Assembly (NCBI GenBank): GCA_964621615.1
Contig: CAZUMW010000001.1
Span: 28,464 to 92,463, forward strand
Direction: 5' to 3'
Length of the DNA stretch: 64,000 nt
Source of the DNA: an uncultured Thermodesulfobacteriota bacterium
GTDB lineage: Bacteria; Desulfobacterota; WTBG01; CAIYCZ01; CAIRTM01
The notes beneath the pieces were generated by a model. It did not search any database and had not been told where the DNA came from. It saw nothing but the letters and a program-made list of their open reading frames with translations. Made by a program: the position numbers and the translations under genes. Positions 2,096 to 23,000 of the stretch are shown here, in pieces; position 1 is the stretch's first letter, and every line of letters begins with the position of its first letter.

Positions 2096-5000
2096 ATGTT
2101 TGTGGCAATTGTGTCAAGAAAAAGAGGCAAACGGATTCTTAAAACCCTGTCCGTGCTTGTCTGCTTGAGCTGTTTTATGCAGTTCAGCGGGCTGGTTAAT
2201 CTTGCCGCAGCCGCAAAAATCGACCGCAACACCCTTAATCTGAAAAAACAACTTCCCGAACCGCCAACGCTGAAACCGCCGAAACGCTCCCCGCTGGGCG
2301 AAAAAATAATGCGGTGTACTGTGATGCTGATGCCTGCGGCGGTAAAAGAATACGTGTACAAGATCGAGTCCATCGAACAGCAGCTCGACCTGCTGGAGCA
2401 GAAGCTTGAAAGCGGTGAAGACATCAATATCGATTACCGCATTGTGCTTGCCAAACTCGCCGGTTTGAAATCGCTAAGAAAAGAAGTGCAGCGTAATTTC
2501 CGTATCAGAAGCCGGCGCCTTAAAGAGCGTCTTGCAAAAAAAGAGATGCCGGTTGTGCGGAATGCTCTTGATGCGCTTCAAAAACAGCGCCGGGAATTCC
2601 GTGAAGCAGCAGCGCCGGTTTTCGAAACACTTGAAGCATTCGGGATCGCCGATGCGGTTGACCGGGTAAAGATAAACCGGCTGCGACGGCTTGTAAAGCG
2701 TCTGAAGGTTTTTAAACGGCGGCTTCCCCGCAGCCACGACAATCCCCTTCCCTGGCGAAGCGTTGAGCGAAATCAGGTCAAGCCCGAAACTGAAAGTTCT
2801 GTTACTCCCGCCTATATGCGATCTTCTAAAAACAGGTATGCAGCGCGGATTACAAGAAAACCGGCTGGTTCAAAAAGCCTTTCTGCTGCGGCGACCGGCG
2901 CGCCGATGCCCGATGACCTTTCAGAAACACCGGATGTTGTCATAACCCGGCAGATGCGAGATATTGTTGAGCGGCTCGGACACTCCCCGGCCCGAATCTA
3001 TGAGTGGGTTAAAAACAATATCCAATCCGAATTCTACCACGGCTCTTTGCGCGGCTCCGCGGGCACCCTTGCCAAACGCGCCGGTAACGATACCGATACC
3101 TGCTCGCTGCTGATAGCGCTTCTTCGGGCAGCCGGTGTGCCGTGCCGCTACGTGCAGGGCACGGTGGAGATACCGATGCAGCGCGCAAAAGCACTTACCG
3201 GTATCGAGCATGAGCCCCATGTGGGCCGGTATTTTGCCAACGCAGGCATTCCCGTCTGGAACACCGGCACCGGCAGGATACGCTTTGAGCACACCTGGGT
3301 TGAAGCCTGGGTTGACTATATGCCCTACGGCGGTGCAAAAGCCGGGACCGGTGACACCTGGGTGCCGCTTTCCCCCTGGTACAAAGACTATGAAAACACC
3401 CCCGGCACCGACCTTGCCGGCCTGACAGGATTTGACCGTGAAATGTTTATCAACGATTATATGCAGACCGTGCGTACCGATGACCCGGCTGATGCATACA
3501 AAATGTATTTTGACAATTGGTTCAGAGAAAACGGGCCGGGCCGGAACTGGCAGGAAGGGCTGGGCAGCCGCAGCCTGAAGCCCGAGCACTTCAGAAAGCT
3601 GCCGGCGACGGTCAATTTCGAGGTCATTTCCTTTCTGGGTGAACATGCAGCCCTGCCGCAGGATCAGCGCCACACGGTGACTATTGAAGTGCCGGAAGCG
3701 GGCATTGCATACACTATGAATATCATGGATTGTATCGGCAAAAAAATTTCTTTTGCCTATCTTCCTGCAGACAACGAAACCCGGGATCTGATTAATGAAA
3801 GGGGCGGTATTGACCATATACACCCCTTAAGTGTCAATCTGCTGCCCACGCTTCTTGTTGACGGGAAGCGGACGGCAGCGGGTAAAACGGTTAACGCAGG
3901 TTTTGAGCACGCGATGCGCGTTACGTTTTATGTGCCCGGTTTCGGAAGCGATGCGGTTATCTATGAAATGGTTTCGGGCGTCTATTATGTTCTCGGGATC
4001 GATCCGCAGCATGTAACAAACAAACTGCTTTCCGACAGGCTTTCTGGCAGGTGTGCTCAGGCTGAAGAACCCGTTTCTGCTTATGAGAATATGGATGAAA
4101 CGCCTGGTGATGCATTATATGTTTCCGTCATGAAGTATTTTCGCGACCGGAATACGGCCGATTACGACATTGCCGCCCTGTCAAAGGTCCGGGTTCTGAA
4201 GGAAACAACCTGTGCATTAATCGGCCGGGACCCACAGGTGATTGTGGACCGGTTCGGCCTGCCGGTCTCACTTGATAGGGGGCTCCTGTTTATTGATTCT
4301 CAGCGCGATTTTGTAACCCCGGTTTCGGTTGCCGGTGACAGCACGGCTGAAAAAGATTTTTTGTATATACGCGGGTATAACGCTTCATATAATGAGCATG
4401 ACATGTTTGAAGATTATGTGGGTATTGAGGCGGTTTCAACGGTTAAGCTGCTTCAGATTGCACGGCAGCACAATATGCCGGTGTATACTATCGATGCAGC
4501 TAACAGCGACAGTATCATCCCGCTTCTGGGACATGATGAAGCGGTGAAGCAGGTGATCCGGAATGCCGTACACAGAGGCCGCATTGTTACGGTACACAAA
4601 GATCCGGTGACGGTTAAGCAGTGGCGGGGAGTCGGGTATATAGAACGTGACCCGGTAACCCATGCCGCCGGGTATTACGGCATCGGCAGGAAAGGGTTTG
4701 CTTCAGCGGTTTTAACCGATATACAAAGCGAGGTGATCTGGCAGACAGGCAAAGTCGGAACGACCTGCGGCAACCCGGTCAGCATGGCAAGCGGCAATAA
4801 ACTGCAAAAGGAAACCGACCTTGTGCTGCCTGCTGCGGGAAAGGATGTTGATATAACGAGATACTACAACTCACGTGGAGACTGGGTCGGGCTGTTCGGG
4901 CACGGCTGGACCTTCACCTGTGATGAGCAGTTGCATGAGCGCTCTGCTGACGGCCAGGTTGTGTACCGGACAGCAGACGGCAGGCTGTATACCTATACCC

Positions 5001-8000
5001 CCGATGCAGACGGCACCTATACGGCTGAGCCGGGAAATTATGCGGTGCTGACAAAAACTGACGAAGGGTTTGTTATCCGCAAAAAGGGCGGCACACGGCA
5101 TCTGTTTAACCCGGCCGGGAAACTGATGCAGATCGTCGACCGGAACGGCAACTCACTGAGTTTCAGCTACAGCGGTGATGCCCTGACCGGCATTACCGAT
5201 GCTGCCGGGCGCAGGATAGACGTTGAGTGCCGGGATGGTAAAATAACACGGATCACTACTCCTGATGACGATAACACGTGGACCTACACCTATAACGGTG
5301 ATGATCTTGTCAAAGCCGTCAATAATGCAGGACAGACTGTATCCTATACATACCGGGACCATAACATGACCTCCCGAACCGGGCCCGGGGGCAAAACGGT
5401 TGTATATGAATATTACAGCAGCGGGAAAGTGCACTGCGAGCTTTTGCCCAACGGTGCCGAAATGGTGTTCAGCTACAACAGCCCGCTCAGGATAGCAACC
5501 ATGCGCGGCGGATGCTGCTCGGTCTCGCATCATTATTACAACCGGTACGGGCTGAATACGGGGCATATGGACGCTCTGGGCTATGAAGAGCTTGTTGAGT
5601 ATGATGACCAATTAAATGTGGTAAAAGTGATCGACAAAAAAGGCGGTGTGGTGAAAAACACCTATGATGAAAACGGCAACCTGCTGACAAAAACAGATCA
5701 GCTGAATCATACGACCGCCTACACCCATGAGCCGGTATATAACCAGGTCCTGACCGTGACCGACGGGGAAGGAAATACCACCACAAACACCTATGATGAC
5801 CGGGGGAATCTGCTTGCCACGGTCGATCCGGAAGGGGTGCGCATTGAACATGCATATTATGAAAACGGTCTGATTAAGACGACCGGCAGAAACGGTATTA
5901 TAAAAGCAGGCTTTACCTATTATGCGGATGGCACCCTTGCAACCGTAACGGATGGGGATAATAATACCGCGCGCTTTACCTATAACGCGCTGGGCAGGCT
6001 CACCGGAAAAACCGATGCAAACGGCAACACAACGGCATACGAGCTTGATAAGGCAGGCAATATTATCACGACGACCGATGCGGAAGGAAACCGGACCGTT
6101 TTTACCTACAACGAACAGAACCTTCGCACCAGCATGACCGATGGGCGCGGAAACACCACCACTTATGAATACAATGCGTATGGCAAACTCATAACAGTGA
6201 CCGATCCCATGGGTTTTGAGAAGAGCTATACCTATACGCCCATGTATGAGCTTGCATCCGAAACGGATAAAAACGGAAACACTACTTTCTATGTATATGA
6301 TGAGCTGCGCCGGGTTGTTGAAAAGCAGTATGCGGACGGCTCCGTTGAAACCTTCACCTACGATCCTGAAGGCAGGCTGATCAGCGCCGCGAACAGTCAG
6401 GGTACCACGGTGCAGGAATATGATGCTGCCGGGCGGCTGGTGAAAACGATCGATACCTTTGGCCAGGAAATTTCCTATACCTATTATGCCGACGGCAGCC
6501 GGAAGTCCATGACAGATCCGCAGGGCGGCGTGACACAATATGACTATTATGCAAACGGACAGATCAAATCGATTACCGGTCCCTCGGGAAAGACAACCGC
6601 CTATGCGTATACGGACGGGCTGCTTGAAAAGATCAGTAATCCAAACGGCACAGAAACCGTTTACGGCTATGATACTGCAGACCGGGTACACAGCCTTATC
6701 ACCCGCAAACAAAACGGCGAGGTGATTTCAGACATCCGGTATGAGTATGACGGTGTCGGCAATCGCCTGAGCATGACCGATACCGAAGGGGTTCACACCT
6801 ATGAATACGACATGCTCGATCAGGTCGTACGGGTCGACTATCCGGACGGTACGTTTACTGAGTATACCTATGATCCGGCATATAACCGGGCGACAATGAC
6901 AACCCCTGATGCAGCCGTTCTGTATGTGTATGACGATAACAACCGCCTGATAGAGGCCGGTGATGTAACCTTCAGCTATGATGCAAACGGCAACCAGATC
7001 AGCAGGCTGGAGGACGGGGAGGTGACCGCCTACCGGTTTGATGCAAAGAATCAGCTCGCAGGAATCTCCTTCAGCAGCGGAACTGAAAATACATTTGCCT
7101 ATAATGCCTTCGGGCAGAGGATCACCCGGAAGGACGGCTCCGCTATCATGCATTATCTGTATGACGGCAGGCAGGTGCTCATGCAGACAAACGGACAGGG
7201 CGTAATAAGCAGCGCATTTGTGAACGGATCCGGGTTAATCGGACCGCTTTATAAAAAGAACGCAAGGGATGAATACACCTGGTATGTCAGGGATGCCCTG
7301 GGCACTGCAACCCATCTGACCGATGAGGCAGGTGACATTGCTGCCTCATACCGGTATGATATATTCGGCGCGGTGCGAAGCTCAACGGTTATTGATGACC
7401 GGGGAATCAGGAATCAATATACGGGAAAAGAGCTTGACGATGAATCGGGCCTCATGTATTTCGGAGCGAGATATTATAACCCGGAGATCGGCCGGTTTGT
7501 TTCTGCTGATACCTACACCTGGGGGCCGGATGATGAGAGGGGGATGAACAGTCGCGGACAGGATCACATTTTGACATATGTTGGTGCTACTCAAACATCG
7601 CAATTAAACCTTTATGTTTATACAGCCAACAATCCTGTCAAACAGATTGATCCAGACGGACATCTAGCGGGCCTTGCTGCAATAGTTGCGTTGATTATGC
7701 TCAGTTTAGTAGCTTCTTCATTGATGGTAATTGCTAGAACTTTTACGGGTACTATAGGAAATAATGCAGCGGAAGTTTTAAGCGGAATGGTTGCTGATTT
7801 CATGACAGCGTACGGTTTGCTTGGTGCGCTTCCTGGGATAGCAACTGCTACTTTGACTTCTTTGTTGGTAAATTTTGTTACTACCCTATGGACAGAGCTT
7901 TATCTTAACCGCACAATTAGAGCAGTAAACAAATTTTACAGTGCTATTGACAGTTTGTTAGCATATTATGAATCTCCGCGTGTACAATGTCCAATTTTTC

Positions 8001-8005
8001 ATTAG
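2096..8005 (+). CDS. Rhs/YD-repeat polymorphic toxin (1969 aa) with N-terminal signal-like segment and a transglutaminase-like cysteine-protease domain; C-terminal hydrophobic toxin tip
   Basis: AGGA-like RBS before ATG. The transglutaminase-like Cys-His core is CSLLIALLRAAGVPCRYVQG ... EHTWVEAWVD (nt ~3080-3330). Dozens of YD repeats (YTYDxxGNL, nt ~4900-7200). Rhs core motif RYYNPEIGRFVSADTY (nt 7471-7518), then DPDGHLAGL (nt ~7648). The last ~110 aa are hydrophobic and Gly/Ala-rich. GC drops sharply from ~7560 to the stop. Confidence 0.85.
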   Translation: MFVAIVSRKRGKRILKTLSVLVCLSCFMQFSGLVNLAAAAKIDRNTLNLKKQLPEPPTLKPPKRSPLGEKIMRCTVMLMPAAVKEYVYKIESIEQQLDLLEQKLESGEDINIDYRIVLAKLAGLKSLRKEVQRNFRIRSRRLKERLAKKEMPVVRNALDALQKQRREFREAAAPVFETLEAFGIADAVDRVKINRLRRLVKRLKVFKRRLPRSHDNPLPWRSVERNQVKPETESSVTPAYMRSSKNRYAARITRKPAGSKSLSAAATGAPMPDDLSETPDVVITRQMRDIVERLGHSPARIYEWVKNNIQSEFYHGSLRGSAGTLAKRAGNDTDTCSLLIALLRAAGVPCRYVQGTVEIPMQRAKALTGIEHEPHVGRYFANAGIPVWNTGTGRIRFEHTWVEAWVDYMPYGGAKAGTGDTWVPLSPWYKDYENTPGTDLAGLTGFDREMFINDYMQTVRTDDPADAYKMYFDNWFRENGPGRNWQEGLGSRSLKPEHFRKLPATVNFEVISFLGEHAALPQDQRHTVTIEVPEAGIAYTMNIMDCIGKKISFAYLPADNETRDLINERGGIDHIHPLSVNLLPTLLVDGKRTAAGKTVNAGFEHAMRVTFYVPGFGSDAVIYEMVSGVYYVLGIDPQHVTNKLLSDRLSGRCAQAEEPVSAYENMDETPGDALYVSVMKYFRDRNTADYDIAALSKVRVLKETTCALIGRDPQVIVDRFGLPVSLDRGLLFIDSQRDFVTPVSVAGDSTAEKDFLYIRGYNASYNEHDMFEDYVGIEAVSTVKLLQIARQHNMPVYTIDAANSDSIIPLLGHDEAVKQVIRNAVHRGRIVTVHKDPVTVKQWRGVGYIERDPVTHAAGYYGIGRKGFASAVLTDIQSEVIWQTGKVGTTCGNPVSMASGNKLQKETDLVLPAAGKDVDITRYYNSRGDWVGLFGHGWTFTCDEQLHERSADGQVVYRTADGRLYTYTPDADGTYTAEPGNYAVLTKTDEGFVIRKKGGTRHLFNPAGKLMQIVDRNGNSLSFSYSGDALTGITDAAGRRIDVECRDGKITRITTPDDDNTWTYTYNGDDLVKAVNNAGQTVSYTYRDHNMTSRTGPGGKTVVYEYYSSGKVHCELLPNGAEMVFSYNSPLRIATMRGGCCSVSHHYYNRYGLNTGHMDALGYEELVEYDDQLNVVKVIDKKGGVVKNTYDENGNLLTKTDQLNHTTAYTHEPVYNQVLTVTDGEGNTTTNTYDDRGNLLATVDPEGVRIEHAYYENGLIKTTGRNGIIKAGFTYYADGTLATVTDGDNNTARFTYNALGRLTGKTDANGNTTAYELDKAGNIITTTDAEGNRTVFTYNEQNLRTSMTDGRGNTTTYEYNAYGKLITVTDPMGFEKSYTYTPMYELASETDKNGNTTFYVYDELRRVVEKQYADGSVETFTYDPEGRLISAANSQGTTVQEYDAAGRLVKTIDTFGQEISYTYYADGSRKSMTDPQGGVTQYDYYANGQIKSITGPSGKTTAYAYTDGLLEKISNPNGTETVYGYDTADRVHSLITRKQNGEVISDIRYEYDGVGNRLSMTDTEGVHTYEYDMLDQVVRVDYPDGTFTEYTYDPAYNRATMTTPDAAVLYVYDDNNRLIEAGDVTFSYDANGNQISRLEDGEVTAYRFDAKNQLAGISFSSGTENTFAYNAFGQRITRKDGSAIMHYLYDGRQVLMQTNGQGVISSAFVNGSGLIGPLYKKNARDEYTWYVRDALGTATHLTDEAGDIAASYRYDIFGAVRSSTVIDDRGIRNQYTGKELDDESGLMYFGARYYNPEIGRFVSADTYTWGPDDERGMNSRGQDHILTYVGATQTSQLNLYVYTANNPVKQIDPDGHLAGLAAIVALIMLSLVASSLMVIARTFTGTIGNNAAEVLSGMVADFMTAYGLLGALPGIATATLTSLLVNFVTTLWTELYLNRTIRAVNKFYSAIDSLLAYYESPRVQCPIFH

Positions 8006-8203
8006 ATCAAAAGTTTTTTTAGAGTCGTGTCAAAAAAATTCAACAACTTTCATCCCGGGCGAATAAAGTGAGATTTGGAATTTATGTTCTGTTAGATTTT
8101 CCATGGATTCCGCATTAATAGAGGGGTGAAAGAATAGATAGTTTTTTGATGCTATGCCGACAAGTGTAAATCAATATCGTACATCATTTAGGGAGTTTTG
8201 AAA

Positions 8204-8578
8204 ATGCCGTTACTGGACATATTGTTAGCCATTTTTGGTTTTGGTTTAATGGTTTTATGTATGCTGTTCCCAGAAAAAGTTAAATCATTTTATTCCACTA
8301 ATAATGAGAAAGAAATAAAACCGCAATTAAAAAAAATTACAATAGGTTTATTTGTTCTTATTATCGATTTCGGAATATGGTCTATATGTTCTTTGGTAGT
8401 TGGAATAAATATTACTGATGAAGGAAAAATATTATTTAATTTTATAACAATAATTATTGTTCCTTTAATATCTTTCATCTTTATTTTCTTTGGGCTTATT
8501 GATTTGATTAAACACTTATTATCAACAAAAAAAACGAAGCAAAAGGAAGCAAGGAATAAACCAGGGGTTACATCTTAA
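8204..8578 (+). CDS. small multi-pass membrane protein, candidate Rhs immunity protein
   Basis: Immediately downstream of the Rhs toxin tip. AGGGAG RBS 8 nt before ATG 8204. 124 aa with about 4 predicted TM helices. Very AT-rich like the toxin tip. No recognisable family. Confidence 0.5.
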   Translation: MPLLDILLAIFGFGLMVLCMLFPEKVKSFYSTNNEKEIKPQLKKITIGLFVLIIDFGIWSICSLVVGINITDEGKILFNFITIIIVPLISFIFIFFGLIDLIKHLLSTKKTKQKEARNKPGVTS

Positions 8579-9660
8579 ATAATAACTATTGCATACAAAA
8601 AGAAGCGACAATAATGTCTCAAAGACACACGATTCAATCAGATTGTATTGTGGGGAGAGATCAATGACACGTGCATTGCGTGTTGAGTATGAAGGGGCGT
8701 TCTATCATATTCTTAATCGAGGCAACGGGGGAGAGAAAGTACTCAAACAAAAGCGGGACAAGGAAAGATTTCTTCAGTATGCAGGAGAAGCCGCTGAACG
8801 ATACAGCTTTGTCATTCACACCTATTGCCTGATGGATAACCATTTTCATGTGGTTGTAGAGACCCGTGAAGCAAATCTGAGTACAGCAATGCAGTGGCTC
8901 AATGTGAGCTATGCGACATGGTATAACAAAAAGCACAGCCGAAGCGGTCATGTATTTCAGGGAAGATTCAAATCATATTTGATAGATGCGGATGAATATT
9001 TGGCAGCGGTATCCCGTTACATACATCTCAATCCGGTTCGGGCGGGGATGGCAGAAAATCCTGCGGTTTATCAATGGAGCAGTTACGGGTGTTTTGTGGA
9101 ACAACGGGAAAAGCCCGGATGTCTGGAGACCCGGAAAGTGCTTTCATATTTCAGCCCAAAGACTTCTGAGGCAATAAAGGAATATAAGAGGTTTGTTGAA
9201 AATATAGAGATAAACGCGCTTGAAAATCCCAGCAAACAAGCTGTTGAGGGATTTATAATCGGGGGAGCTGGTTTTGCAGACCGGGTGCGGCAACAAATGG
9301 TTACAGCAAATCACGAACAGGAAAAAGAGATTCCCCAGCTTAAAAGGCTTAAGCCCAAACCGGCACTTGAAAGCATAATAGAAGCAGCGTCTTATGTGTT
9401 TTGCTGCAGGAGAGAAGATATTGTAAGAAGCGGAAAGAAACATAACCTGGCACGTGATATAGCGATATATATTGCACGAACGTCAACCGGTTTGTCATGC
9501 AGAGAACTCGGGGAGCATTTTGGCGGAATAACGGGTGCCGGGATTACTATGAAGTACAGGCAGATAAAAAATCTGGCGGAAAAGGAAAAAGGTATCAGGG
9601 AAAACATAGCGAATATCAGCAGCCGTATATTTAATATTTAAGATGTGACCCTTGACTATG
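8563..9660 (+). mobile_element. IS200/IS605-like (Y1 HuH transposase + DnaA_C-like HTH) element delimited by 16-bp inverted repeats GGGTTACATCTTAAAT / ATTTAAGATGTGACCC
   Basis: The left repeat at 8563-8578 overlaps the stop of the immunity ORF. The right inverted copy is at ~9639-9656 (15/16 match). Single transposase ORF inside. Low GC. Confidence 0.5.
8664..9641 (+). CDS. IS200-like Y1 (HuH) transposase / RAYT-type protein fused to DnaA C-terminal-like HTH domain
   Basis: HuH motif DNHFHVVVE and Tyr motif RYIHLNPV (Y1 transposase fold). The C-terminal ARDIAIYIARTSTGLSCRELGEHFG resembles the DnaA_C HTH. GGGGAGAGA RBS upstream of ATG 8664. Confidence 0.7.
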   Translation: MTRALRVEYEGAFYHILNRGNGGEKVLKQKRDKERFLQYAGEAAERYSFVIHTYCLMDNHFHVVVETREANLSTAMQWLNVSYATWYNKKHSRSGHVFQGRFKSYLIDADEYLAAVSRYIHLNPVRAGMAENPAVYQWSSYGCFVEQREKPGCLETRKVLSYFSPKTSEAIKEYKRFVENIEINALENPSKQAVEGFIIGGAGFADRVRQQMVTANHEQEKEIPQLKRLKPKPALESIIEAASYVFCCRREDIVRSGKKHNLARDIAIYIARTSTGLSCRELGEHFGGITGAGITMKYRQIKNLAEKEKGIRENIANISSRIFNI

Positions 9661-9801
9661 CTCAAAAAATATTTTTTGGCAAATTTCATTGTGTTTGCTG
9701 TTTTTGTTGTTACCCTGGGTGCAGCAGTTGTACTGATTATTATAGGTCTATTTGATTTGATTCGCCATTGGTTTAAGAAAAGGAAAAGGGTCACATCTTA
9801 A
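9658..9801 (+). CDS. 47-aa hydrophobic mini-ORF, orphan immunity-like fragment (C-terminus homologous to 8204..8578 product)
   Basis: Translation MLKKYFLANFIVFAVFVVTLGAAVVLIIIGLFDLIRHWFKKRKRVTS. The C-terminus (GLFDLIRHW...VTS*) parallels GLIDLIKHLL...GVTS* of the upstream protein. The nucleotide 3' end, including GGGTCACATCTTAAAT, is duplicated. No clear RBS. Below the ORF-track length cutoff. Confidence 0.35.
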   Translation: MLKKYFLANFIVFAVFVVTLGAAVVLIIIGLFDLIRHWFKKRKRVTS

Positions 9802-9886
9802 ATATTAAATATTTCACACAAAGAGAAGCACAAATGATGTCTCATAGGAACACGATTCAGGCAGATTGTATTTTGGGGAACGGTTA

Positions 9887-10131
9887 ATGACACGTGCGTT
9901 GCGGGTTGAATATGAAGGAGTGTTCTATCATATTCTTAATCGAGGCAACGGGGAGAAAAAGCACTCAAACAAAAGCGGGACAAGGAAATATTTCTTCAGT
10001 ATGCAGGAGATGCTGCTGACCGTTACAGCCTTAACATTCATACCTATTGCCTGATGGACAACCATTTTCATCTGGTCATAGAAACCCGAGCAGCAAACCT
10101 GAGTGCGGCAATGCAGTGGCTGAATGTGAGC
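9887..10131 (+). pseudogene. truncated, frameshifted duplicate of the IS200-like transposase 5' end
   Basis: nt 9788-10131 are ~85-90% identical to 8563-8945, including leader and MTRALRVEYEG..YHILNRGNG. A 1-nt deletion (GGGGAGAGAAAG to GGGGAGAAAAAG) shifts the frame. Homology ends abruptly at ~10131. Confidence 0.6.
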
Positions 10132-10162
10132 TGTTTAATTGAAGTTGAGTAGGTTATGAATT

Positions 10163-12190
10163 GTGAAAGTTGAGTTCATGAATAGAAACCAGGCAGAAAA
10201 TGCTTTGTATCGTATTTTTGGTCACAGAGAATTTTACGATGAGCAGTGGCAGACTATCGAAAGGCTCTTTCGCGGTGAGCGTTTGTTGATGATTGAGCGA
10301 ACCGGTTACGGGAAATCCCTTTGTTATCAATTCCCGGCAACGCAGTTTAAGTATACCACCGTTGTTTTTTCGCCGCTTATTGCATTAATGCGTGACCAGA
10401 TTGACTATCTGCAATCAAAAGATATTGCCGCAGAATGCATAAACAGCGAACAGACTCCTGAAGAAAACACCCGGATTATTGCCGAGGCAAAGCAGGGGAA
10501 GATAAAGATTCTCTATATTGCGCCTGAACGCCAGGAGAATCAGGAATGGATTGAAGCTGTTCAAAGCGGACAGATAAAAATATCAATGGCAGTTATTGAT
10601 GAAGCCCACTGTGTCTCTATGTGGGGACATGATTTTCGTCCCGCTTTTCGTCGGATCATAAGTCTTATAAAAATGCTTCCCCGCAATTTTCCTGTACTTG
10701 CCACAACCGCTACCGCAACAGATCGTGTTGCTCAAGACATTATAAAACAGATGGAAGGTCATGTTAGGCTGGTGCGCGGTGATCTCATGCGAAAGAATTT
10801 TCGTTTATCGGTTGTGACTTTTGATTCAGAAGATGCAAAATTTGCCTGGGTGGCTGAATTTCTACAAAAGCAATCTGCGGATGCAACGGGAATTATTTAT
10901 ACCGGCACCAGGGTCAATACGGAACTTTATTCCCGGTGGCTTGGGGCAAACGGTTTTTCCGTGGCAAGTTATAATGCCGGTCTTGATCCGGAATCACGTA
11001 AAGCCATAGAAGAAGGATTGCTCTTAAACAAATATAACTGTATTGTTTCTACAAATGCACTGGGCATGGGGATTGACAAATCAAATATTCGTTTTATCGT
11101 ACACACGCAGCTGCCGGCATCACTGATACATTATTATCAGGAAATCGGCCGGGCAGGCCGTGATGGACTGCCTGCACAAATAGCCTTATTATATAATCAG
11201 AAAGATAGAGAACTTCCTCGATCATTTATCGAAAAAAACCGACCTGACATTAAGCTGTACACAAGAGCTGTAGACGCATTACGCCGGGAGCCTCTGGGTG
11301 AATATGATTTAATGCGCAGAACAAACCTTACCCAGACCCAGATAAGAGTCATCAGAAGCGATCTCATTGATCAGGGTATAATAAATGAGGCTGCTTACGG
11401 GGGTAAAAAGAAATATGAATTGAAACACAATGCCCCGGCTTTAGATACCGAACCCTTCAAAAGACTCCGCGGTTTCAAAGAACAGGAGCTTCAAAAAATG
11501 ATCGACTATGCAGAAGCTGAAAAGGGCGGTATGAATATTTTGTGTGAGTATCTTGGTGATAATCCGGGTGCGGCAACTGACGGCTGTGAACGTTATACTT
11601 ATGCATTAAGTGAATCCTGGAGGAAAGCTATAGCTGCATTTCGAGACGATTATTTTCCGGAGTTGCCGGTCGAGACGAAAAACAGCATTCTTATTAATGG
11701 TGTTGCCGCTTCATATTATGGTGTTTCTAATGTTGGATCGGTAATACATCGTTGTAAATATGAAAATGGTGGTGATTACCCCGGGCATTTAATAAAGCAG
11801 ACGCTAAGGGCCTATAGGGCTCGACTGAGCCAAACCGCATTTGATTTAGTTCTATATGTGCCGCCGGCGGTATCCGGTGATTTGGTTAAGAATTTTTCTG
11901 TTGCTGTAGCTAAGTCATTGGGGCTGCATTTGTCACATGGTCTTGTTAAATTAAGAGAGACTAAACAGCAGAAAATTTTTCAAAACGGCGTTTTGAAACG
12001 TGATAATGTAAAAGATGCCTTTGATTATGCCGGTCCGGAAGATATTGAGGGGAAAAGTATTTTATTAATTGATGATATTTTTGACAGCGGAGCAACAATA
12101 AAAGAGATAGGACGAATGTTAAAGAAAAAAGGAACTGCAAAAGCCGCTCCGTTGGCAATTGCCAGGACGGTTGGGGGTGATTTGTCGTGA
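10163..12190 (+). CDS. RecQ-family DNA helicase fused to a C-terminal ComF/ComFC-type phosphoribosyltransferase (PRTase) domain
   Basis: Walker A TGYGKS. DEAH box VIDEAHCVSMWGHDFRPAF. RecQ motif YYQEIGRAGRDG. No RQC/HRDC. The last ~190 aa carry the ComF signature (LRETKQQKIFQNGVLKRDNVKDAF; PRPP-binding SILLIDDIFDSGATIKE...LAIAR). GTG at 10163 or ATG at 10178. Low GC. Confidence 0.8.
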   Translation: MKVEFMNRNQAENALYRIFGHREFYDEQWQTIERLFRGERLLMIERTGYGKSLCYQFPATQFKYTTVVFSPLIALMRDQIDYLQSKDIAAECINSEQTPEENTRIIAEAKQGKIKILYIAPERQENQEWIEAVQSGQIKISMAVIDEAHCVSMWGHDFRPAFRRIISLIKMLPRNFPVLATTATATDRVAQDIIKQMEGHVRLVRGDLMRKNFRLSVVTFDSEDAKFAWVAEFLQKQSADATGIIYTGTRVNTELYSRWLGANGFSVASYNAGLDPESRKAIEEGLLLNKYNCIVSTNALGMGIDKSNIRFIVHTQLPASLIHYYQEIGRAGRDGLPAQIALLYNQKDRELPRSFIEKNRPDIKLYTRAVDALRREPLGEYDLMRRTNLTQTQIRVIRSDLIDQGIINEAAYGGKKKYELKHNAPALDTEPFKRLRGFKEQELQKMIDYAEAEKGGMNILCEYLGDNPGAATDGCERYTYALSESWRKAIAAFRDDYFPELPVETKNSILINGVAASYYGVSNVGSVIHRCKYENGGDYPGHLIKQTLRAYRARLSQTAFDLVLYVPPAVSGDLVKNFSVAVAKSLGLHLSHGLVKLRETKQQKIFQNGVLKRDNVKDAFDYAGPEDIEGKSILLIDDIFDSGATIKEIGRMLKKKGTAKAAPLAIARTVGGDLS

Positions 12191-13362
12191 TTAATACGCA
12201 CGAGTACTCATATTGGATTGCATTGAGTCATTTACCGAAATGGCGTATCGAGCGTATCAATATGCTTATTGTTGAGATCCTTCATAATAAAAATATGCAG
12301 CTCGCAGAGTTTTTTGAGCTGAGTCCGCCATCCCGGGAAAAAGAGTTTCATTTGGATCATAAGGAAAGTGCAGATATACAAAAGGCCGGGGAATATTTGT
12401 CCAATTACTCTTTCCTTGCTGAACAATTGCTTGTACAAGGCTTTGATATAATTCCTATCAGCTCCCCTGACTATTCTCCAGTGCTGAAAAACAATCTTAA
12501 ACTCAAATATTCTCCGCCCCTGCTTTATGTCAAGGGGAACAGGCGGCTGCTTTACGAGCCATCAGCCGCAATAGTCGGCTGTCGAAAAGCATCTGACATT
12601 TCTTTGCACTTTACCCGTACGATTGCTGAGAAATGTGCCCATGAAGAAAAAGTAGTGGTGAGCGGATTTGCCAAAGGTATTGACCGGCAGGCGCTTGATT
12701 CGGTCCTTGCATATCATGGCAAAAGTATTATTGTTCTGCCGCAGGGGATTATGACATTTGGCAGTGGTATAAAAAAATATTATAAGCAGCTTGTTGACGG
12801 AGATGTGCTGGTTTTAAGCACTTTTTATCCGAAAGCCCCATGGAGCGTAGGCCTTGCTATGGCGCGAAATGTATATATTTACGGTTTAGCCGAAGAAATA
12901 TTTGTGGCCGAATCGGATAATAAAGGGGGCACGTGGTCCGGTGTTCTCGATGGGTTAAAAAAGGGGCGGACAATATTTGTTCGCAAGGCGGACATACAGG
13001 AAAAGAATACAAACAATATTTTGATAGAAAAGGGAGCCCGGGGAGTAGACTTGCAGGGAAATATAATTTCTTTAGAAAAAGAAGGTATGCACCAGCATAT
13101 CATTGCAGACAATGTTGCCGCCTACGGTCTGCAAGCAGAGAATAGTGATTCATTTGAAAGTAAAGTTATACAGTATTTAAATAAGACGAAAGAGCCAAGA
13201 ACCTCCAGGCAGATTAAGGAAGCCATTAACGTAGAGGAACCTGCACAAAAGATAACGCAGAAATTAAAAAAAATAACCGGTATCAATTATACCAAACATA
13301 AAAACAAAATCTTTTTTTTCACTGAACGAACAAATCCATTAAAACAGCAGGAGCTGTTCTGA
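12187..13362 (+). CDS. dprA: DprA/Smf-family DNA-processing protein (SLOG/Rossmann fold) with C-terminal winged-helix-like extension
   Basis: The GTG start overlaps the upstream TGA (GTGA), indicating translational coupling. DprA core PLLYVKGNRRLL...AIVGCRKAS...VVVSGFAKGIDRQA...IIVLPQGI...VYIYGLAEEIFVAESDNKGGTWSG. Low GC. Confidence 0.75.
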   Translation: MINTHEYSYWIALSHLPKWRIERINMLIVEILHNKNMQLAEFFELSPPSREKEFHLDHKESADIQKAGEYLSNYSFLAEQLLVQGFDIIPISSPDYSPVLKNNLKLKYSPPLLYVKGNRRLLYEPSAAIVGCRKASDISLHFTRTIAEKCAHEEKVVVSGFAKGIDRQALDSVLAYHGKSIIVLPQGIMTFGSGIKKYYKQLVDGDVLVLSTFYPKAPWSVGLAMARNVYIYGLAEEIFVAESDNKGGTWSGVLDGLKKGRTIFVRKADIQEKNTNNILIEKGARGVDLQGNIISLEKEGMHQHIIADNVAAYGLQAENSDSFESKVIQYLNKTKEPRTSRQIKEAINVEEPAQKITQKLKKITGINYTKHKNKIFFFTERTNPLKQQELF

Positions 13363-13414
13363 TAGTGATATTTGGCAGCACGCGGGCGGTGGCACATCTT
13401 AAATAAAAAAATTT

Positions 13415-13681
13415 ATGGATGCACTTATTCGTTTTGCAACGTCTGTTTTGTATGTTTTGGCCGGCTGGGGGACAAAGCAATTTTTCAGTGGGAATATAGA
13501 TAAGTATAAAATTCTATATATAGCAGTGCCGATATTATTGGCAATATATTTTTTGGCTATAGAAAAAATGTATGAGATACAAAAGCAAAACAGAAAGATA
13601 ATTGCCAAATCCAGGAATGCCGTGATTCAATTTTTGGCATTAGCAACAATATTTTATTTTTTTGGTCTAATATTTGTGTAA
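13415..13681 (+). CDS. small hypothetical membrane protein (88 aa, 3 TM-like segments)
   Basis: AT-rich ORF at the island edge. No family recognised. Weak RBS. Confidence 0.3.
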   Translation: MDALIRFATSVLYVLAGWGTKQFFSGNIDKYKILYIAVPILLAIYFLAIEKMYEIQKQNRKIIAKSRNAVIQFLALATIFYFFGLIFV

Positions 13682-13684
13682 ATA

Positions 13685-13786
13685 AGCCCGGCAGACGTGG
13701 CGGCCAATTACTTTCTGCAGGGCGGGGATCGGTATTTATTCACCTGAGGACAGCATCCTTTGTGTGCATGAATACGGCTTTTTTTA
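13685..13786 (+). repeat. copy 2 of ~105-nt intergenic repeat family with 3' hairpin + T-run
   Basis: First ~70 nt identical to copy 3 and ~90% to copy 1. Ends GCATGAATACGGCTTTTTTT. Confidence 0.65.
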
Positions 13787-13884
13787 TGAGATGAGCACAG
13801 GGGGGCAAAAAACCGTTATTTAACCTGTGTGTCCTTGTGGTTTTATAAAATGGACGGCGGTTACATGAGTCCCCGGAGCAGTAT

Positions 13885-17069: not shown

Positions 17070-20000
17070 ATGAAGCAGTTAATAAAGACGTGGTACGGTG
17101 TTTGGGGAGCGGTTATTATCTCTACAGTTCTGTTCACGGTGCAGGCACAGGCTCATGAGGCTGCCGTAGAAAGCGGGCTTCAGTGGCTTATAGACAGTCA
17201 GCATCCGGATAACGGCAGCTGGGGCACACTGCCGGAGCTTGATACCCCGGTTGTGCTCTCAGCCTTTCAAAAGCTCGGCGAAACGGGATATGCCTATGAC
17301 GAGGGCCTTTCCTTTCTGGAACAGACGCGGCCGGAGTGCATTGATTTTTTAAGCCGCAAAACGATCGCTTTGAGCGCTGCCGGGCGTGATGTTTCAGAAA
17401 GCCTTGAAAAAATTCTGGCGGCCCAGAATGAAGACGGCGGGTTTGGGTTTGCCCTGGGGTATTGCAGCTCTGTTATCGATTCCCTGATCGCAGCCCGCGC
17501 GCTGTCTGCTGCCGGAGTTGAGCAGCATGAAGTTATCGGCAGACTGGTATATTACATTACCGAATCGCAGAGCCAGGACAACGGCAGCTTTTCCTATGCC
17601 GCAGGCGGCCCGGAAAGCCTTGCAGTGACCTGCTGTGCAGCAATCGTGCTGAGTGACTTTTCACCCCGGTATGATGTTTCAGAACACCTGCGCAGTGCCC
17701 TTCATTTTATTTCAGGCTGTAAAAACCCTGACGGCGGGTACGGTGAGTCCGGAAGCACGGTGATCGAAACCGCGCTTGCGGTTCGGGCTCTGACTGCGGC
17801 AGGCGGCAGTGCACAGGACATTCTTTCCGGGCGGCGGTATCTGACTGCAATGCAGAATCAAAGCAGCGGAGCCTGGAATGATGCGGTTTATGAGACAGCA
17901 CTTGCCCTGCGGGCGCTTAATAATACCGATACAGTTGACCGGGCAAACCTGCAGGTACACCCCGAGGGAATCACCATGGAACCGCAGTACCCGGCCCAGG
18001 GGCAGACGGTGACCGTAACCGGTGAGGTGCGAAACACCGGCTCATCAGCTGCAGAGAATGTAGGGGTTTCTTTCTATCTCGGCGATCCGGAAAACGGCGG
18101 GGTTCATATAGACAGTGCTACCGTTTCAACCATTCTTGCCGGCGACAGCGAAGAGGTTCAGATTACGTTCACCCTTACCGGGGTAGTCGGCGAGCGGGAT
18201 ATGTATGTTGTCGCCGATCCGGATAACAGTATTCCCGAGATAAGCGAACATGATAATACAGCATCAAAAGGGTTTGTTAGCGGTACCATGCCTGATATTG
18301 CGGTGGTTGAGATTACACGGGATGTCGACACCCCTGCGGAAAACGAGCCGTTTACCATAAGCGCCGGGGTGCTCAACCTTGGTGAAAGCGATGCCGGGCC
18401 GGTTACGGTGTTTCTTTATGACGGCGATCCCGGGCAGGAGGATCCGCTGCTTAAGATCAGGCTTGACAACGTGTGCGGCGGCTGCAGCGGACAGGCTGAT
18501 TTTACGCTGCAGCTTTCAGCGGGTACACACACTCTGTATATTACCGCCTATCCGGATGATCCGAACGTAGAGGAGCAATCGCTTTCAAATAACCGGAGAT
18601 CATATACCGCTAATATTGATGGAGCCGTAATCCAGGGTATCGATCTTGCCGTCAGCCCGGCTGACATAGATTTTTCACCGCCCTATCCGCGCGACAACGA
18701 AACCGTAACCATTACCGCAACAGTGCGAAATAGCGGCAGTGAAACGGTAACCGATGCTTCTGTGGAACTGTTCCGTGCAGGTTCAGACGGAACCGGTGTA
18801 CTTATCGGGGAGCCATTTAGGGGCGTTACCGTCCCCGGAGCCGGTGCTGCCGACATTGTTATGCATGATGTGTCATTTGAAGCTGGACTTTTTGATATAT
18901 ATGTGAAGACTGACCCAGACAATACCTATGAGGAACACAGCGAGAATAACAATATAGCCGCAAAACAGCTGAGAGTATTAAGCTCAGCGGATGAGCTTGA
19001 TCTTTCAGTTGGCGAAATGTCATTTGACACTGCAACGCCGTTAGCAGGCGATCCGGTCCGGGTGAGCTGCCGGATAACCAATAACAGCACGGTTCCGCTT
19101 GAAGGGGTGAGCTTCGGCATATACGCAGGAGATCCCCGCTCGGGCGGTGCGCTTCTGATCCCCGAAGTACAGACGGTTTCAGCGCTCGGGATCCAAAGCA
19201 GTATATATATCGAAGGGACCATCGATACGGCCGGACGCGGCGGAGAGCAGCACATCTATATTATGGCGGATGTTGATAATGATATAGCCGAGCGCAACGA
19301 AGAAAACAATCTCGCATCCGCAGCGCTTGTGGTAACCGGTGAATCTGCTCCCGATCTAATCGCAACGGATGCAGATATTATAGTGGAGCCTGCAGACCCG
19401 GCTGTCGGTGACAACATGACCGTCACCTGCCGGATTACAAACGCAGGTTCTGTCGCCGTTTCAGATGATTTTCAGGTCAATGTTTACGACGGCCCGCCAT
19501 CGGAAGACAACCCGCCATTTGCCGGGCTGCCGGTAACCGGCGGTATGCCGGCAAACGGATACTATCTTGACATAACCCTGCCGATTCCTGCAGCACAGCT
19601 TGCCGGAACGCATACCATATATGTGGTGGCAGATGACGGCAATGCCGTCAGTGAGTTTAATGAATATAACAACACCGCAACAAAAGAGGTTACTGTTCAG
19701 GCAGCTGACCTGAGCATTGGTTCTGAGGATATCTCTTTCAGCCTGCCGGCCCCCATGGAAAACGAACTGTTTACCCTTACCGCTGTTGTGCACAATATCG
19801 GAATGCTCAATGTGGAGAGCATGCGGATCGCTGTATATACCGGCGACAACGACACAGCAAATCTCATCGGCGAACAACAGGCAGGGCCGATCGGTGCAGG
19901 AGAAAGCGTGAGTGTTGAAGTGGAAAATCTCGCATTTGATGCTGCCGGCTCCTATAATCTGCAGGTGAAACTCGACCCCGACAACCTGATTGCTGAGGCA

Positions 20001-23000
20001 AGTGAGGATAACAACGAGGCAGAAAAGAATATCACCATAGTATCAGCAGGTGTATGTATAACCGATGCCGACTGTGATGACGGAAATGTATGCAACGGCA
20101 GTGAAATCTGTCAGAAGGGTACCTGCACTGCCGGAGTGCCGCCTGATTGTGATGACAGAGATAACTGTACCACGGATACCTGTGATCCGGTAGAGGGTTG
20201 TAAACACGAACTCATTCCCGGCTGTGTTGTCGACGGAATCGATCTTGTTCCGCTCATTATTGATACAACAGGCGTGACTATGGATGCACAGGCAGGAGAC
20301 GTCGGCGGCACGGCTGCAATTGATATTGAAAACCGCGGCACGCTTCCGGCCGATGCGGGCTTTATGGTGACGGTGTTTGATGATGTGAATGAAAACAGCG
20401 ATTATGACAACGGAACCGATACGATGCTGGGAACGGCAGCGGCAACACAGAGTGTGGCTTCAGGAGGGACAATGTCGGTCACAATAGCCCTGAGCGGCAC
20501 ATTGAGCGGTAATAAAGTCTATGCAGCGGTTGATACGGAAAATCTTATTCCGGAGATAAATGAAGTAAATAATGTTACTGAAGCAGAAATCCTGAACAAA
20601 AAAGACAGCGCAGCCGCCTGCGGAGCAGAATGGCTTGTTGACCATCAGCATGAAAAGGGAGGATGGTCTATCAGTAAACCTGCACGAGGTAATGCTGCAT
20701 CACTACGGGCTCTTGCGGTTACCGGAAATATGCACCTACCCGTATTCGATATCATTAAAAACAGAGTATACGAGCTGCAGGCAACAAACGGAAGCTGGGA
20801 TAATGATGTGGAATCAACCTGTGAATCAATTATGGCGTTGCTGGCAGCAGGTGAAGACAGAAAATCGTCAGTCATTACAAATGCAGTCGCCTGGCTTAAA
20901 AGGATACAAAGAGAAAGTGGGAGCTGGAATAACGTCGCAAGGACAACCGGGATGGCAATTGCAGCGCTCATCGATGCTGGCGAAAATAAATTCTCAGCCG
21001 TTGTCCAGGAAGCAAAGCAGTGGCTGCTGAATACGCAAAATCCTGACGGGTTCTGGGGCCACCATCCGGGATATGATTCGCATGTGGGGCAATTATATTA
21101 TCCTATGACCGGCCTTGTTCTGGCTTTTTCTCCGTCTTCGGATACGGAACAGGTTGCAATAGATAATGCGGTAGCATGGTATACATCAAACTATTACAAT
21201 CGGACAAAATTAAAATACAGCTGTTTGAACATTCTTCGGTATGCCGGAGTGACAAATGGCGATATTGTTGATGATTTGAAGTATGATTTATTAGATGATC
21301 AATATGGTGATGGTGGGTGGGGGATTTCATATCCGCCAAATGCGCCTCTCAGTGAAGCATTGTCCACTGCAGAATCTATTATTACCCTGAGTTTTTTTGA
21401 TGACACAACTGATTCTATATCAGATGGGGTGAGCTGGATTGAAAACAACGTCAATAATATGGGCGATCTAACCTATCCGTATGAAAAGCCCTATCAAACC
21501 GCCATGACTTTACTTGCACTGAACAATAACAAATGGGCTAAATACAACCAGGAAACAGTTAAATCCTTAGAAAGAATAATTAATACACAGAACGATAAGG
21601 GGACCTGGCATGGTCGGTTAATAAAAGATCAAGGGGGGTCGCATACTCCAGGTTGTATATATTTGTTATGGTCCCTTGGAGAAACACACATTGATATTCC
21701 TGCTAAAAATGATGCAATAAGTATGGCAAGGCGCATTCTCATATCATCGCAGTTGGATAATGGAGGCTGGTGTACAAAAATAAGCAAAAACAGACCTGCA
21801 GAAATCGGTCTAACCTGCTATGCGCTCTTGGCTTTATTGTCTTCTGGAAGCAAAAGTAATGATAGCCATATTTACTATGGAATAAACTGGCTGCTTGAAC
21901 AAAGCAATAGCAACGGTTCATGGGATTCAGTTGAAAATACTGCCCTTGCTGCAATGGTTCTGGAAAAGGCTGGCGGGTACCACAGTGAGGTTGATGATGC
22001 AGCTGCCTGGCTGCTTGACAATCAGAATTATGACGGCGGCTGGGGAAACCCCTACAGTACTGCAAGCGACACCTCTTGGACGATTATTTCACTGAGTATG
22101 ACAGGAAACGAAGGGCTTGCACTGGGCAGAGGACTTGAATGGCTGCTTTCCTTGCAGAATGAAGACTGCGGCTGGGCATCTGTCCCTGGTATTCCGGCAA
22201 GTGATACAACCAGAACGGCTCTTGCTGTCTGGGCACTCTCGGTAGCTGACTACAGTCCTGACGTCGAGTTAAACATTTCTTTTGATAAAGAGTATTACTA
22301 TCCCGGTGAGACGGTGGGAATCACCGTAGCGCCACACAATCAGGATGCAGACATACAGTCCATTTGGGGAACGGTATCCGAGTACAATGCCGATACCCAT
22401 AATGTTTCCTTTATTAAACTGGGCAACACATTTATCGGTGAGCACAGGCTAAGCGACACCCATGCCGCCGGCACCGATGTTGTTTCAGTTGAAGCGGTAA
22501 GTGATAACAAAACCGGGCTTGCCGTAAACACCTTTGTGGTTAAAAACGCCCCGTCAGGGTTTGTGGACCTTAAAGCAGGGGATACAATAACGCTTAGTGA
22601 TGACAGCCCTGAGGAAGGCGATGTGCTGACCATAAGCACAGATGTATACAATATCGGCACCGACAACGTCACGGATGTTGTCGTCCGGTTCCTTGACGGC
22701 GCAGAGCAGATCGGCAACGATCAGGCTGTCGATTCTCTGGCCCCGGGTGAACACGCAGCGGCTTCTGTTACGTGGCATACCGTCGGCCAGGCGGGGCGCA
22801 ACTACATCCATGTGCAAATCGACCCGGATAACGAAACCAGGGATGTTAACCGGCTCAACAACGAAGCCATTACGGCTGTTGATGTCGGCAGTCCCGAGAT
22901 GCCGGACCTGGCAGTAAGCAAGACGGATATCAGCGTTTCAAAGCCTGATCCGGCAGAAGGAGAGGAAATAACGGTATCGGCCGTCATCCGCAACCGTGGC

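Follow-up and report, generated by a model that had tools for sequence, protein, structure and literature searches.

A probable PsyrTA (RqlHI) toxin-antitoxin pair in a low-GC island of an uncultured Desulfobacterota-like chromosome

The 64,000-nt stretch of contig CAZUMW010000001.1 analysed here (hereafter the window), which originates from an uncultured Thermodesulfobacteriota bacterium, harbours two overlapping genes coding for a RecQ-like helicase joined to a phosphoribosyltransferase (PRTase) and for a DprA-like protein. With high confidence, this pair can be regarded as a PsyrTA (RqlHI) toxin-antitoxin (TA) and anti-phage module that entered a Desulfobacterota-like chromosome by horizontal transfer. 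Membership of the family, intact catalytic motifs, strict conservation of the operon and a foreign nucleotide composition are all directly supported by the data presented below. In the initial annotation the same pair was taken for a non-canonical, competence-like DNA-processing cassette, the architecture of which matched no described system. The latter statement does not hold, since RqlHI/PsyrTA has been described and both proteins are covered end to end by its PADLOC profiles. The pair is an ordinary copy of an already known system, whose architecture was on record in publications of 2012-2015. Meanwhile the suggestion of an anti-foreign-DNA module, as opposed to a housekeeping gene, is borne out by the PsyrTA identity. 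A standard annotator (PADLOC or DefenseFinder) would label the pair PsyrTA, and the check removes a high-scoring “novel system” call.

Identity and conservation of the gene pair

The product of gene 1 (psyrT) was matched by the PADLOC profile PsyrT (PDLC03928) with an E-value of 1.9e-239 and 794.6 bits, residues 6-673 being aligned to positions 1-688 of the 689 in the profile. The product of gene 2 (psyrA) was matched by the profile PsyrA (PDLC03927; E=2.1e-77, 259 bits, aa 4-370 on positions 5-386 of 398), and its second PADLOC match was ShosA (1.7e-33, 114 bits). Assignment of the pair to ShosTA was considered and rejected, since the PsyrA profile outscores that of ShosA (259 vs 114 bits) and PsyrT is the top-scoring profile for the toxin, which carries a RecQ-like helicase.

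Both open reading frames (ORFs) were found on the forward strand at the positions given in Table 1, and they overlap by 4 nt. The end of psyrT reads ...TTG TCG TGA and the start of psyrA reads GTG ATT AAT, so that the GTGA overlap can be read directly in the sequence, in agreement with the translational coupling of the two genes proposed in the initial annotation. The GTG codon called as the start of psyrT (10163) adds five residues (MKVEF) which are absent in essentially all homologs. Because these homologs begin, with MNR or MTR, at the position aligned with M6 of the window protein, the true start of psyrT is probably the ATG at 10178, which would give a protein of 670 aa.

The PsyrT-type fusion is very common: the homolog search returned at least 8000 matches, the 120 nearest of which were used for the domain and cysteine counts given here. 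The combination of DEAD, Helicase_C and Pribosyltran domains was detected in 119 of these 120 proteins (the exception being P0098), most of them being ∼670 aa long. Reference genomes were also scanned with the PsyrT alignment, and each locus obtained was then searched for a PsyrA-like gene. Such a gene was found downstream, on the same strand, in all 79 related loci that have downstream sequence, with a gap between the toxin and antitoxin tblastn matches of no more than 24 nt in 72 of them; PsyrT and PsyrA matches also share contigs. The helicase-PRTase and DprA-like genes are therefore kept together throughout (79/79), in neighbourhoods that are mixed. An E. coli IncF plasmid (NZ_OX030731.1), for example, carries a pair of genes for a RecQ-family helicase and a DprA protein with a 4-nt overlap. 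The toxin of the window shares 31% amino acid sequence identity with its plasmid counterpart end to end, including the DDI(V/F)DSG phosphoribosyl pyrophosphate (PRPP) loop, and the antitoxin shares 37% identity over the Rossmann domain.

In this E. coli plasmid (locus 1-8118) the pair lies inside a type I restriction-modification (R-M) operon, in the order hsdM-hsdS-[pair]-hsdR. In Terrimonas ferruginea (locus 3484-12472) it is located in or beside a type I R-M operon, with an AbiEii-like AAA_21 ATPase upstream. A general association with type I R-M was, however, rejected, as only 2 of the 80 related loci have R-M genes at a distance of 6 kb or less from the pair, and the association is hence occasional.

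The low GC content of the pair relative to the flanking chromosome, pointed out in the initial annotation, was readily confirmed. The GC content is 0.43 in gene 1 and 0.41 in gene 2, and at third codon positions (GC3) it is 0.37 and 0.41, respectively, vs 0.54-0.58 in the flanking genes. The low-GC island spans approximately positions 7600-13800. The window as such is chromosomal, as polA, asnB and a carboxyltransferase gene are present. The nearest named relatives of the host PolA belong to Desulfobacterota, which provides an approximate placement of the host, while those of PsyrT come from KSB1, Cloacimonadota, Neomarinimicrobiota, Bacteroidota and even Altarchaeum. The drop in GC3, together with this taxonomic mismatch between PsyrT and PolA, supports the horizontal acquisition that had been suggested for the pair. 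No second homolog of dprA or recQ and no tRNA gene that might serve as an integration site were found in the 64-kb window, and a scan of the 7-15 kb region against Rfam for an RNA antitoxin or other non-coding RNA gave no matches.

The architecture was described by Ordonez, Unciuleac and Shuman in 2012 for RqlH of M. smegmatis, a species without RecQ. This protein comprises a RecQ-like ATPase, a linker, a tetracysteine zinc domain and a ComF-like PRTase, and its 3'-5' helicase activity resides in residues 1-505 (PMC3378886). RqlH of E. coli F11 was subsequently shown by Russell and Mulvey (2015) to be genotoxic via its PRTase domain: the substitution D663A in the PRPP loop abolishes toxicity, and helicase-dead mutants remain toxic while PRTase mutants do not (PMC4670107). 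In the same work, the DprA-like RqlI, reported to have a C-terminal helix-turn-helix (HTH), was found to neutralise RqlH, to be encoded in an operon with it and to co-immunoprecipitate with it only if the PRTase domain was present (PMC4670107). Papers that cite Sberro 2013 credit it with the first identification of psyrTA as a TA pair. In a heterologous screen, PsyrTA (= RqlHI) was among the TA systems that protected against phage, and a psyrA deletion of PsyrTA could not be transformed (Millman 2022; bioRxiv 10.1101/2022.05.11.491447). No mechanistic paper on PsyrT later than 2015 was found in the literature searched.

The pair of the window resembles these characterised members in being a two-gene operon whose stop and start codons overlap, in combining a DprA-like Rossmann domain with a C-terminal HTH in the antitoxin, and in conserving those aspartates of the PRPP loop on which toxicity depends in E. 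coli. It differs in the length of PsyrA (391 aa vs 462 aa in the E. coli plasmid member), in belonging to a subclade without two of the four zinc-ligand cysteines, and in its uncultured, Desulfobacterota-like host. With M. smegmatis RqlH the toxin shares the domain order and a similar length (691 vs 675 aa), and the residues K49 and D148 mutated in that protein are equivalent to the conserved K51 and D146 of PsyrT. The tetracysteine module of this prototype, in contrast, is reduced to two of four cysteines here, though this feature is not used to define PsyrTA. Many Gram-positive rqlH genes have no rqlI partner (PMC4670107); unlike them, psyrT of the window has one, and it is translationally coupled. 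The related ShosTA system (Kimelman 2012; Rousset 2022; Pu 2025, PMC11961720; Yang 2026, PMC12961424) likewise pairs a PRTase-domain toxin with a DprA-like antitoxin, but ShosT has an N-terminal hydrolase/pyrophosphatase domain instead of the helicase. Moreover, ShosA is reported to neutralise its toxin although the two do not bind each other directly (PMC12961424); RqlI, by contrast, does bind RqlH (PMC4670107).

By analogy with the characterised relatives, toxicity of PsyrT alone, its neutralisation by PsyrA and binding of PsyrA to the PRTase domain are to be expected for the window pair, and the pair may confer phage resistance as well. PsyrT would then act as a RecQ-like 3'-5' DNA helicase covalently joined to a ComF-like PRTase, and PsyrA as a DprA-like protein that binds single-stranded DNA (ssDNA) and bears a C-terminal winged helix. 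The GTGA coupling would ensure that both are made in a fixed ratio, with PsyrA restraining the PRTase domain, probably by direct binding as in RqlHI. Phage infection or loss of the locus might upset this balance, whereupon the PRPP-dependent activity of the PRTase domain, the presumed toxic effector, would become genotoxic. The trigger could be a shut-off of host expression followed by antitoxin decay, or else titration of the DprA-like PsyrA by invading ssDNA, which has been suggested for its sister system, ShosTA. The expected outcome would be SOS induction, filamentation, growth arrest or death, by which the infection would be aborted or the island stabilised. The helicase module is probably the DNA-sensing or DNA-targeting part. 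Some residual interest of the pair lies in the mechanism of PsyrT, namely in the substrate of a helicase-tethered PRTase and in the reason for a RecQ-like motor. In addition, this copy documents the PsyrTA family reaching uncultured Desulfobacterota.

Domain structure of PsyrT and PsyrA

As anticipated in the initial annotation, the product of gene 1 is a RecQ-family helicase core without RQC and HRDC that ends in a ComF-like PRTase domain. Pfam searches revealed DEAD (aa 27-192, 2.1e-21), Helicase_C (aa 226-335, 8.7e-21) and Pribosyltran (aa 614-659), the last with 29.8 bits, just above the gathering score of 26.3, while no match to RQC or HRDC was obtained in the Pfam and NCBIfam searches. 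The protein passes the cut-off of the NCBIfam subfamily recQ_fam (335 bits vs 219.8) and stays below those of the canonical RecQ equivalogs (TIGR01389, 362.6 vs 640.2 bits; PRK11057, 300.1 vs 1015), the equivalog match being confined to aa 12-365. Helicase motifs I (T47-G-x-G-K51-S), II (DEAH, 146-149), III (TAT) and VI (QEIGRAGRDG) are readily recognised. Walker A, DEAH and motif VI, as well as the PRPP-loop aspartates, are invariant in alignments of 15 and 59 homologs. The best matches of the helicase core, both in the PDB and with Foldseek, are RecQ cores (PDB 1oyw, E=5.7e-72; Foldseek 4tmu, E=1.7e-32).

The AlphaFold model of the fusion (mean predicted local distance difference test (pLDDT) 82.5, predicted template modelling score 0.79) is confident and in agreement with this domain assignment. 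In order, it comprises the RecQ core, a unit resembling a winged helix, the helices that remain of the former zinc domain and an alpha/beta PRTase domain. The winged-helix-like unit is modelled as three helices (363-375, 380-387, 391-403) and a beta hairpin (strands 407-412 and 415-420). In the literature, the “RqlH-specific linker” in which it lies is said to have no counterpart in RecQ, and here it is predicted to adopt a winged-helix-like fold. This predicted unit precedes the zinc-domain helices, while in RecQ the winged helix comes after them.

The C-terminal domain of PsyrT is, judging by its profile scores, ComF-like in the sense that ComF is the closest PRTase family, yet it is not a member of the ComF family itself. 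comF and GntX were the best NCBIfam families for this domain in all 11 members examined, with scores far below the cut-offs (comF TIGR00201, 33.5-36.2 vs 233.55 bits; GntX PRK11595, 35-38 vs 304), and the match to the ComF profile is limited to its last ∼80 positions. A PDB search with a profile of the domain retrieved type I PRTases, PurF and, weakly, ShosT (8zvb, E=0.0035). RecQ cores dominated the whole-chain Foldseek search of PsyrT, which left the C-terminal domain without a fold match of its own. Aspartates D637, D638 and D641 of the PRPP loop are invariant in the homologs; in the alignment with the E. coli plasmid protein they fall on DDIVDSG.

The zinc-binding region of PsyrT is degenerate. 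Its sequence at 11525-11590 (aa 455-476) reads GGMNILCEYLGDNPGAATDGC, while the family consensus is CRMxFLCxYLGDxxVxxCGKCDND. Four or more cysteines are present in this region in 85 of the 120 nearest homologs, and one to three in the remaining 35, the window protein included. The precomputed Pfam RecQ_Zn_bind assignment is absent from the closest relatives of this PsyrT, and the helices of the former domain are still predicted in the AlphaFold model. Since the loss is shared by 35 of 120 homologs, it argues against a pseudogene; the state is a clade-level trait marking a distinct zinc-less subclade and not a lesion. Such a subclade could serve structure-function work.

Gene 2 codes for a protein with the complete DprA architecture (SAM-like, Rossmann/SLOG and winged-helix modules) that had been ascribed to it, as all three modules are found in the confident AlphaFold model (pLDDT 88.3): an N-terminal domain of helices, followed by a Rossmann domain and, after a disordered linker, a C-terminal winged helix. 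The latter is built of helices 323-333, 340-347 and 353-362 and strands 366-371 and 374-379, with pLDDT values of 85-89. Pfam DNA_processg_A was detected at aa 84-286 (1.2e-38), so that the set of Pfam domains expected for the two proteins in the initial annotation was recovered in full, but the scores remain below those of the dprA equivalogs (TIGR00732, 112.4 vs 191.15 bits; PRK10736, 76.9 vs 495). Foldseek matched the model with DprA of S. pneumoniae (3uqz, 2.8e-16) and ShosA (8zva, 1.2e-15; the third-ranked chain and second distinct structure), followed by molybdenum cofactor (MoCo)-carrier and LOG proteins of the SLOG type. Aligned to ShosA and to the complete DprA chain of S. pneumoniae, the protein is covered over 289-301 columns.

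Several homologs of PsyrT depart from the common domain composition. P0011, P0028, P0050 and P0073 (850-926 aa) possess an HRDC domain and some of them also RQC according to Pfam, the HRDC domain being situated in an N-terminal extension in the two examples that were aligned (P0028 and P0073). P0018 (879 aa) has a C-terminal leucine-rich repeat domain, and a metagenome-assembled genome of Altarchaeum (locus L011, 3250-8016) contains a PsyrT-type ORF of 1588 aa with a large N-terminal extension.

Table 1. Features of the PsyrTA pair and its surroundings (positions in the window).
Feature	Position	Strand	Remarks
Gene 1, psyrT / rqlH, toxin gene	10163..12190	+	675 aa as called; RecQ-like superfamily 2 (SF2) helicase and C-terminal PRTase
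Helicase core, two RecA lobes (aa 27-335)	10241..11167	+	motifs I, II, III and VI intact
Winged-helix-like unit, predicted (aa 363-420)	11249..11422	+	falls within the “RqlH-specific linker” of the mycobacterial prototype
Degenerate RecQ zinc-binding region (aa 430-476)	11450..11590	+	C461 and C475 left of four consensus Cys; 5-aa deletion
ComF-like type I PRTase domain (aa 476-670)	11588..12172	+	PRPP loop L-L-I-D637-D638-I-F-D641-S-G-A-T
GTGA overlap, psyrA GTG start / psyrT TGA stop	12187..12190	+	read from the sequence
Gene 2, psyrA / rqlI, DprA-like antitoxin gene	12187..13362	+	391 aa
PsyrA N-terminal helical (SAM-like) domain (aa 4-83)	12196..12435	+	AlphaFold pLDDT >95
PsyrA Rossmann/SLOG DprA domain (aa 84-290)	12436..13056	+	conserved motif S159-G-F-x-x-G164-x-D166
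PsyrA C-terminal winged HTH (aa 323-379)	13153..13323	+	after disordered linker 298-320
18-nt copy of the island-specific motif, CACATCTTAAATAAAAAA	13393..13410	+	30 nt past the psyrA stop; direct orientation with 9792-9809
Y1 (IS200-like / RAYT-like) transposase gene	8562..9654	+	DnaA_C-type HTH; flanking 28-nt inverted repeats
Partial second copy: left-end repeat and 5' third of the Y1 transposase gene	9786..10132	+	ends 30 nt before psyrT
Rhs protein gene	2096..8005		upstream of the pair; 1969 aa; 9 RHS repeats, DUF6531

Alternative explanations

Several observations weigh against a functional anti-phage PsyrTA module. Two of the four zinc-ligand cysteines are missing in the window PsyrT, a loss by which the function of the helicase module could be changed, and M. 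smegmatis RqlH truncated so as to lack the zinc domain was insoluble (PMC3378886). The identity to the E. coli member is just 31-37%, a scan for promoters and terminators around the cassette found no more sites than in shuffled sequence, and many of the related loci examined lie between housekeeping genes with no obvious defence island. In addition, the native PsyrTA of E. coli NILS69 gave no detectable protection against the phages tested.

The last observation also bears on the possibility that the pair is a purely selfish addiction module, which stabilises a plasmid or an island, plays no role in phage defence in its host and benefits solely the retention of the low-GC island. Such an explanation seems unlikely. 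In its favour, psyrTA was, by citing accounts, discovered as a TA pair (Sberro 2013), toxicity of RqlH is seen when RqlI is absent (PMC4670107), and the pair of the window is found in a mobile-looking islet beside a Y1 transposase. However, PsyrTA provided phage resistance in the heterologous screen of Millman (bioRxiv 10.1101/2022.05.11.491447), and type I R-M operons enclose the pair in some genomes. One must also bear in mind that addiction and defence roles are not mutually exclusive.

It could further be supposed that the pair is a DNA-repair or recombination helicase system, in which RqlH substitutes for RecQ, RqlI is its cofactor and toxicity is a side effect of their imbalance. RqlH of M. 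smegmatis is indeed an active 3'-5' helicase in a species devoid of RecQ (PMC3378886), a cooperative beneficial function of the two proteins on DNA was proposed by Russell and Mulvey (PMC4670107), the helicase motifs are invariant, and ShosA promotes recombination and binds RecA (PMC11961720, PMC12961424). Nevertheless, the foreign composition, the patchy, cross-phylum distribution, the strict coupling to an antitoxin-like partner and the loss of the zinc module in the subclade of the window protein all speak against such a role, as does the toxicity of the E. coli helicase-dead, but not PRTase, mutants (PMC4670107), which makes this explanation rather improbable.

The competence-like reading of the initial annotation, according to which a helicase-ComF fusion and a DprA homolog process incoming ssDNA for transformation, fared worse and is now to be considered highly improbable. 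It is true that the fold families are shared (SF2 helicase, ComF-type PRTase, DprA Rossmann domain), that ComF/GntX is the best named family for the C-terminal domain of PsyrT, that DprA is likewise the closest named family and fold for gene 2, and that a discussion of the likeness to ComFA/ComFC/DprA had appeared by 2015 (PMC4670107). The equivalog cut-offs, however, are missed widely (comF 33-36 vs 233, dprA 112 vs 191, recQ 363 vs 640 bits), and the helicase is of the RecQ type, not of the ComFA/DEAD type. Neither the window nor the scanned neighbourhoods showed competence genes (ComEC, ComEA, pilins) next to the pair, a canonical DprA is retained separately in E. coli strains that have RqlI (PMC4670107), and the TA behaviour of the characterised members does not fit DNA uptake. 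Finally, the notion that gene 1 is DpdF of a fragmentary Dpd (7-deazaguanine DNA modification) system was rejected as having a negligible probability: although several PADLOC DpdF profiles match the helicase half (best E=3.8e-110, aa 8-375), these matches are restricted to the generic RecQ-like helicase region, the full-length PsyrT profile scores more than twice as high, NCBIfam DpdF (NF041063) is below its cut-off (172 vs 550 bits) and there are no dpd genes nearby.

The Y1 element and neighbouring genes

The initial annotation placed the pair next to an IS200-like element and an Rhs gene, and both were identified. The ORF at 8589-9641 was matched by Pfam Y1_Tnp (1e-14) and Bac_DnaA_C (1.5e-06), and by NCBIfam REP_Tyr_transpos with 73 bits (cut-off 80), and the 28-nt inverted repeats of this gene are located at 8562-8589 and 9627-9654. 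A truncated second copy is evident from direct repeats (8565-8910 vs 9788-10132) which are 85-88% identical. The 13-nt core CACATCTTAAATA occurs in four copies in the 64 kb, all of them within the island (0.09 expected by chance), and two copies in direct orientation (9792 and 13393) flank the pair. Thus, the description of the island as “repeat-bracketed” can be retained in a limited, modest sense, i.e. that short direct copies of a motif flank the pair.

In the second transposase copy, the 3' part may have given way to PsyrTA. A bolder proposal combines two elements, namely that the helicase or sensor of the zinc-less “GGM...C...C” subclade works differently and that PsyrTA travels as cargo of the Y1 element. 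The cargo idea arises because the cassette takes the place of the 3' two-thirds of the tandem second copy and is bounded by the island-specific motif of the element. Taken jointly, the two parts amount to a speculative and doubtful reading; if true, the cargo part would supply a case in which a single-strand Y1 transposon mobilises a defence module.

A perfect 27-nt inverted pair surrounds an ORF for a 47-aa membrane protein (9658-9801), which is situated between the Y1 gene and the truncated second copy. The 27-nt repeat motif of the island reads AAGGGTCACATCTTAAATATTAAATAT. The island motif overlaps the stop codons of small membrane-protein ORFs, the products of which end in ...VTS.

The Rhs protein has an N-terminal transglutaminase-like core and, after a DPDGH motif, a hydrophobic C-terminal tip of low GC content (GC3 0.29). 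The tip is followed by an ORF coding for a multi-pass membrane protein of 126 aa (8198-8578, 26% GC), a candidate immunity protein; neither the tip nor this small ORF was assigned to a family. On the other side, 3.7 kb downstream of the island, an ORF of 3027 aa (17070-26153) codes for a protein with a signal-peptide-like N-terminus and many repeated modules, and a local dip in GC content was observed at 21-22 kb, within the region of this ORF.

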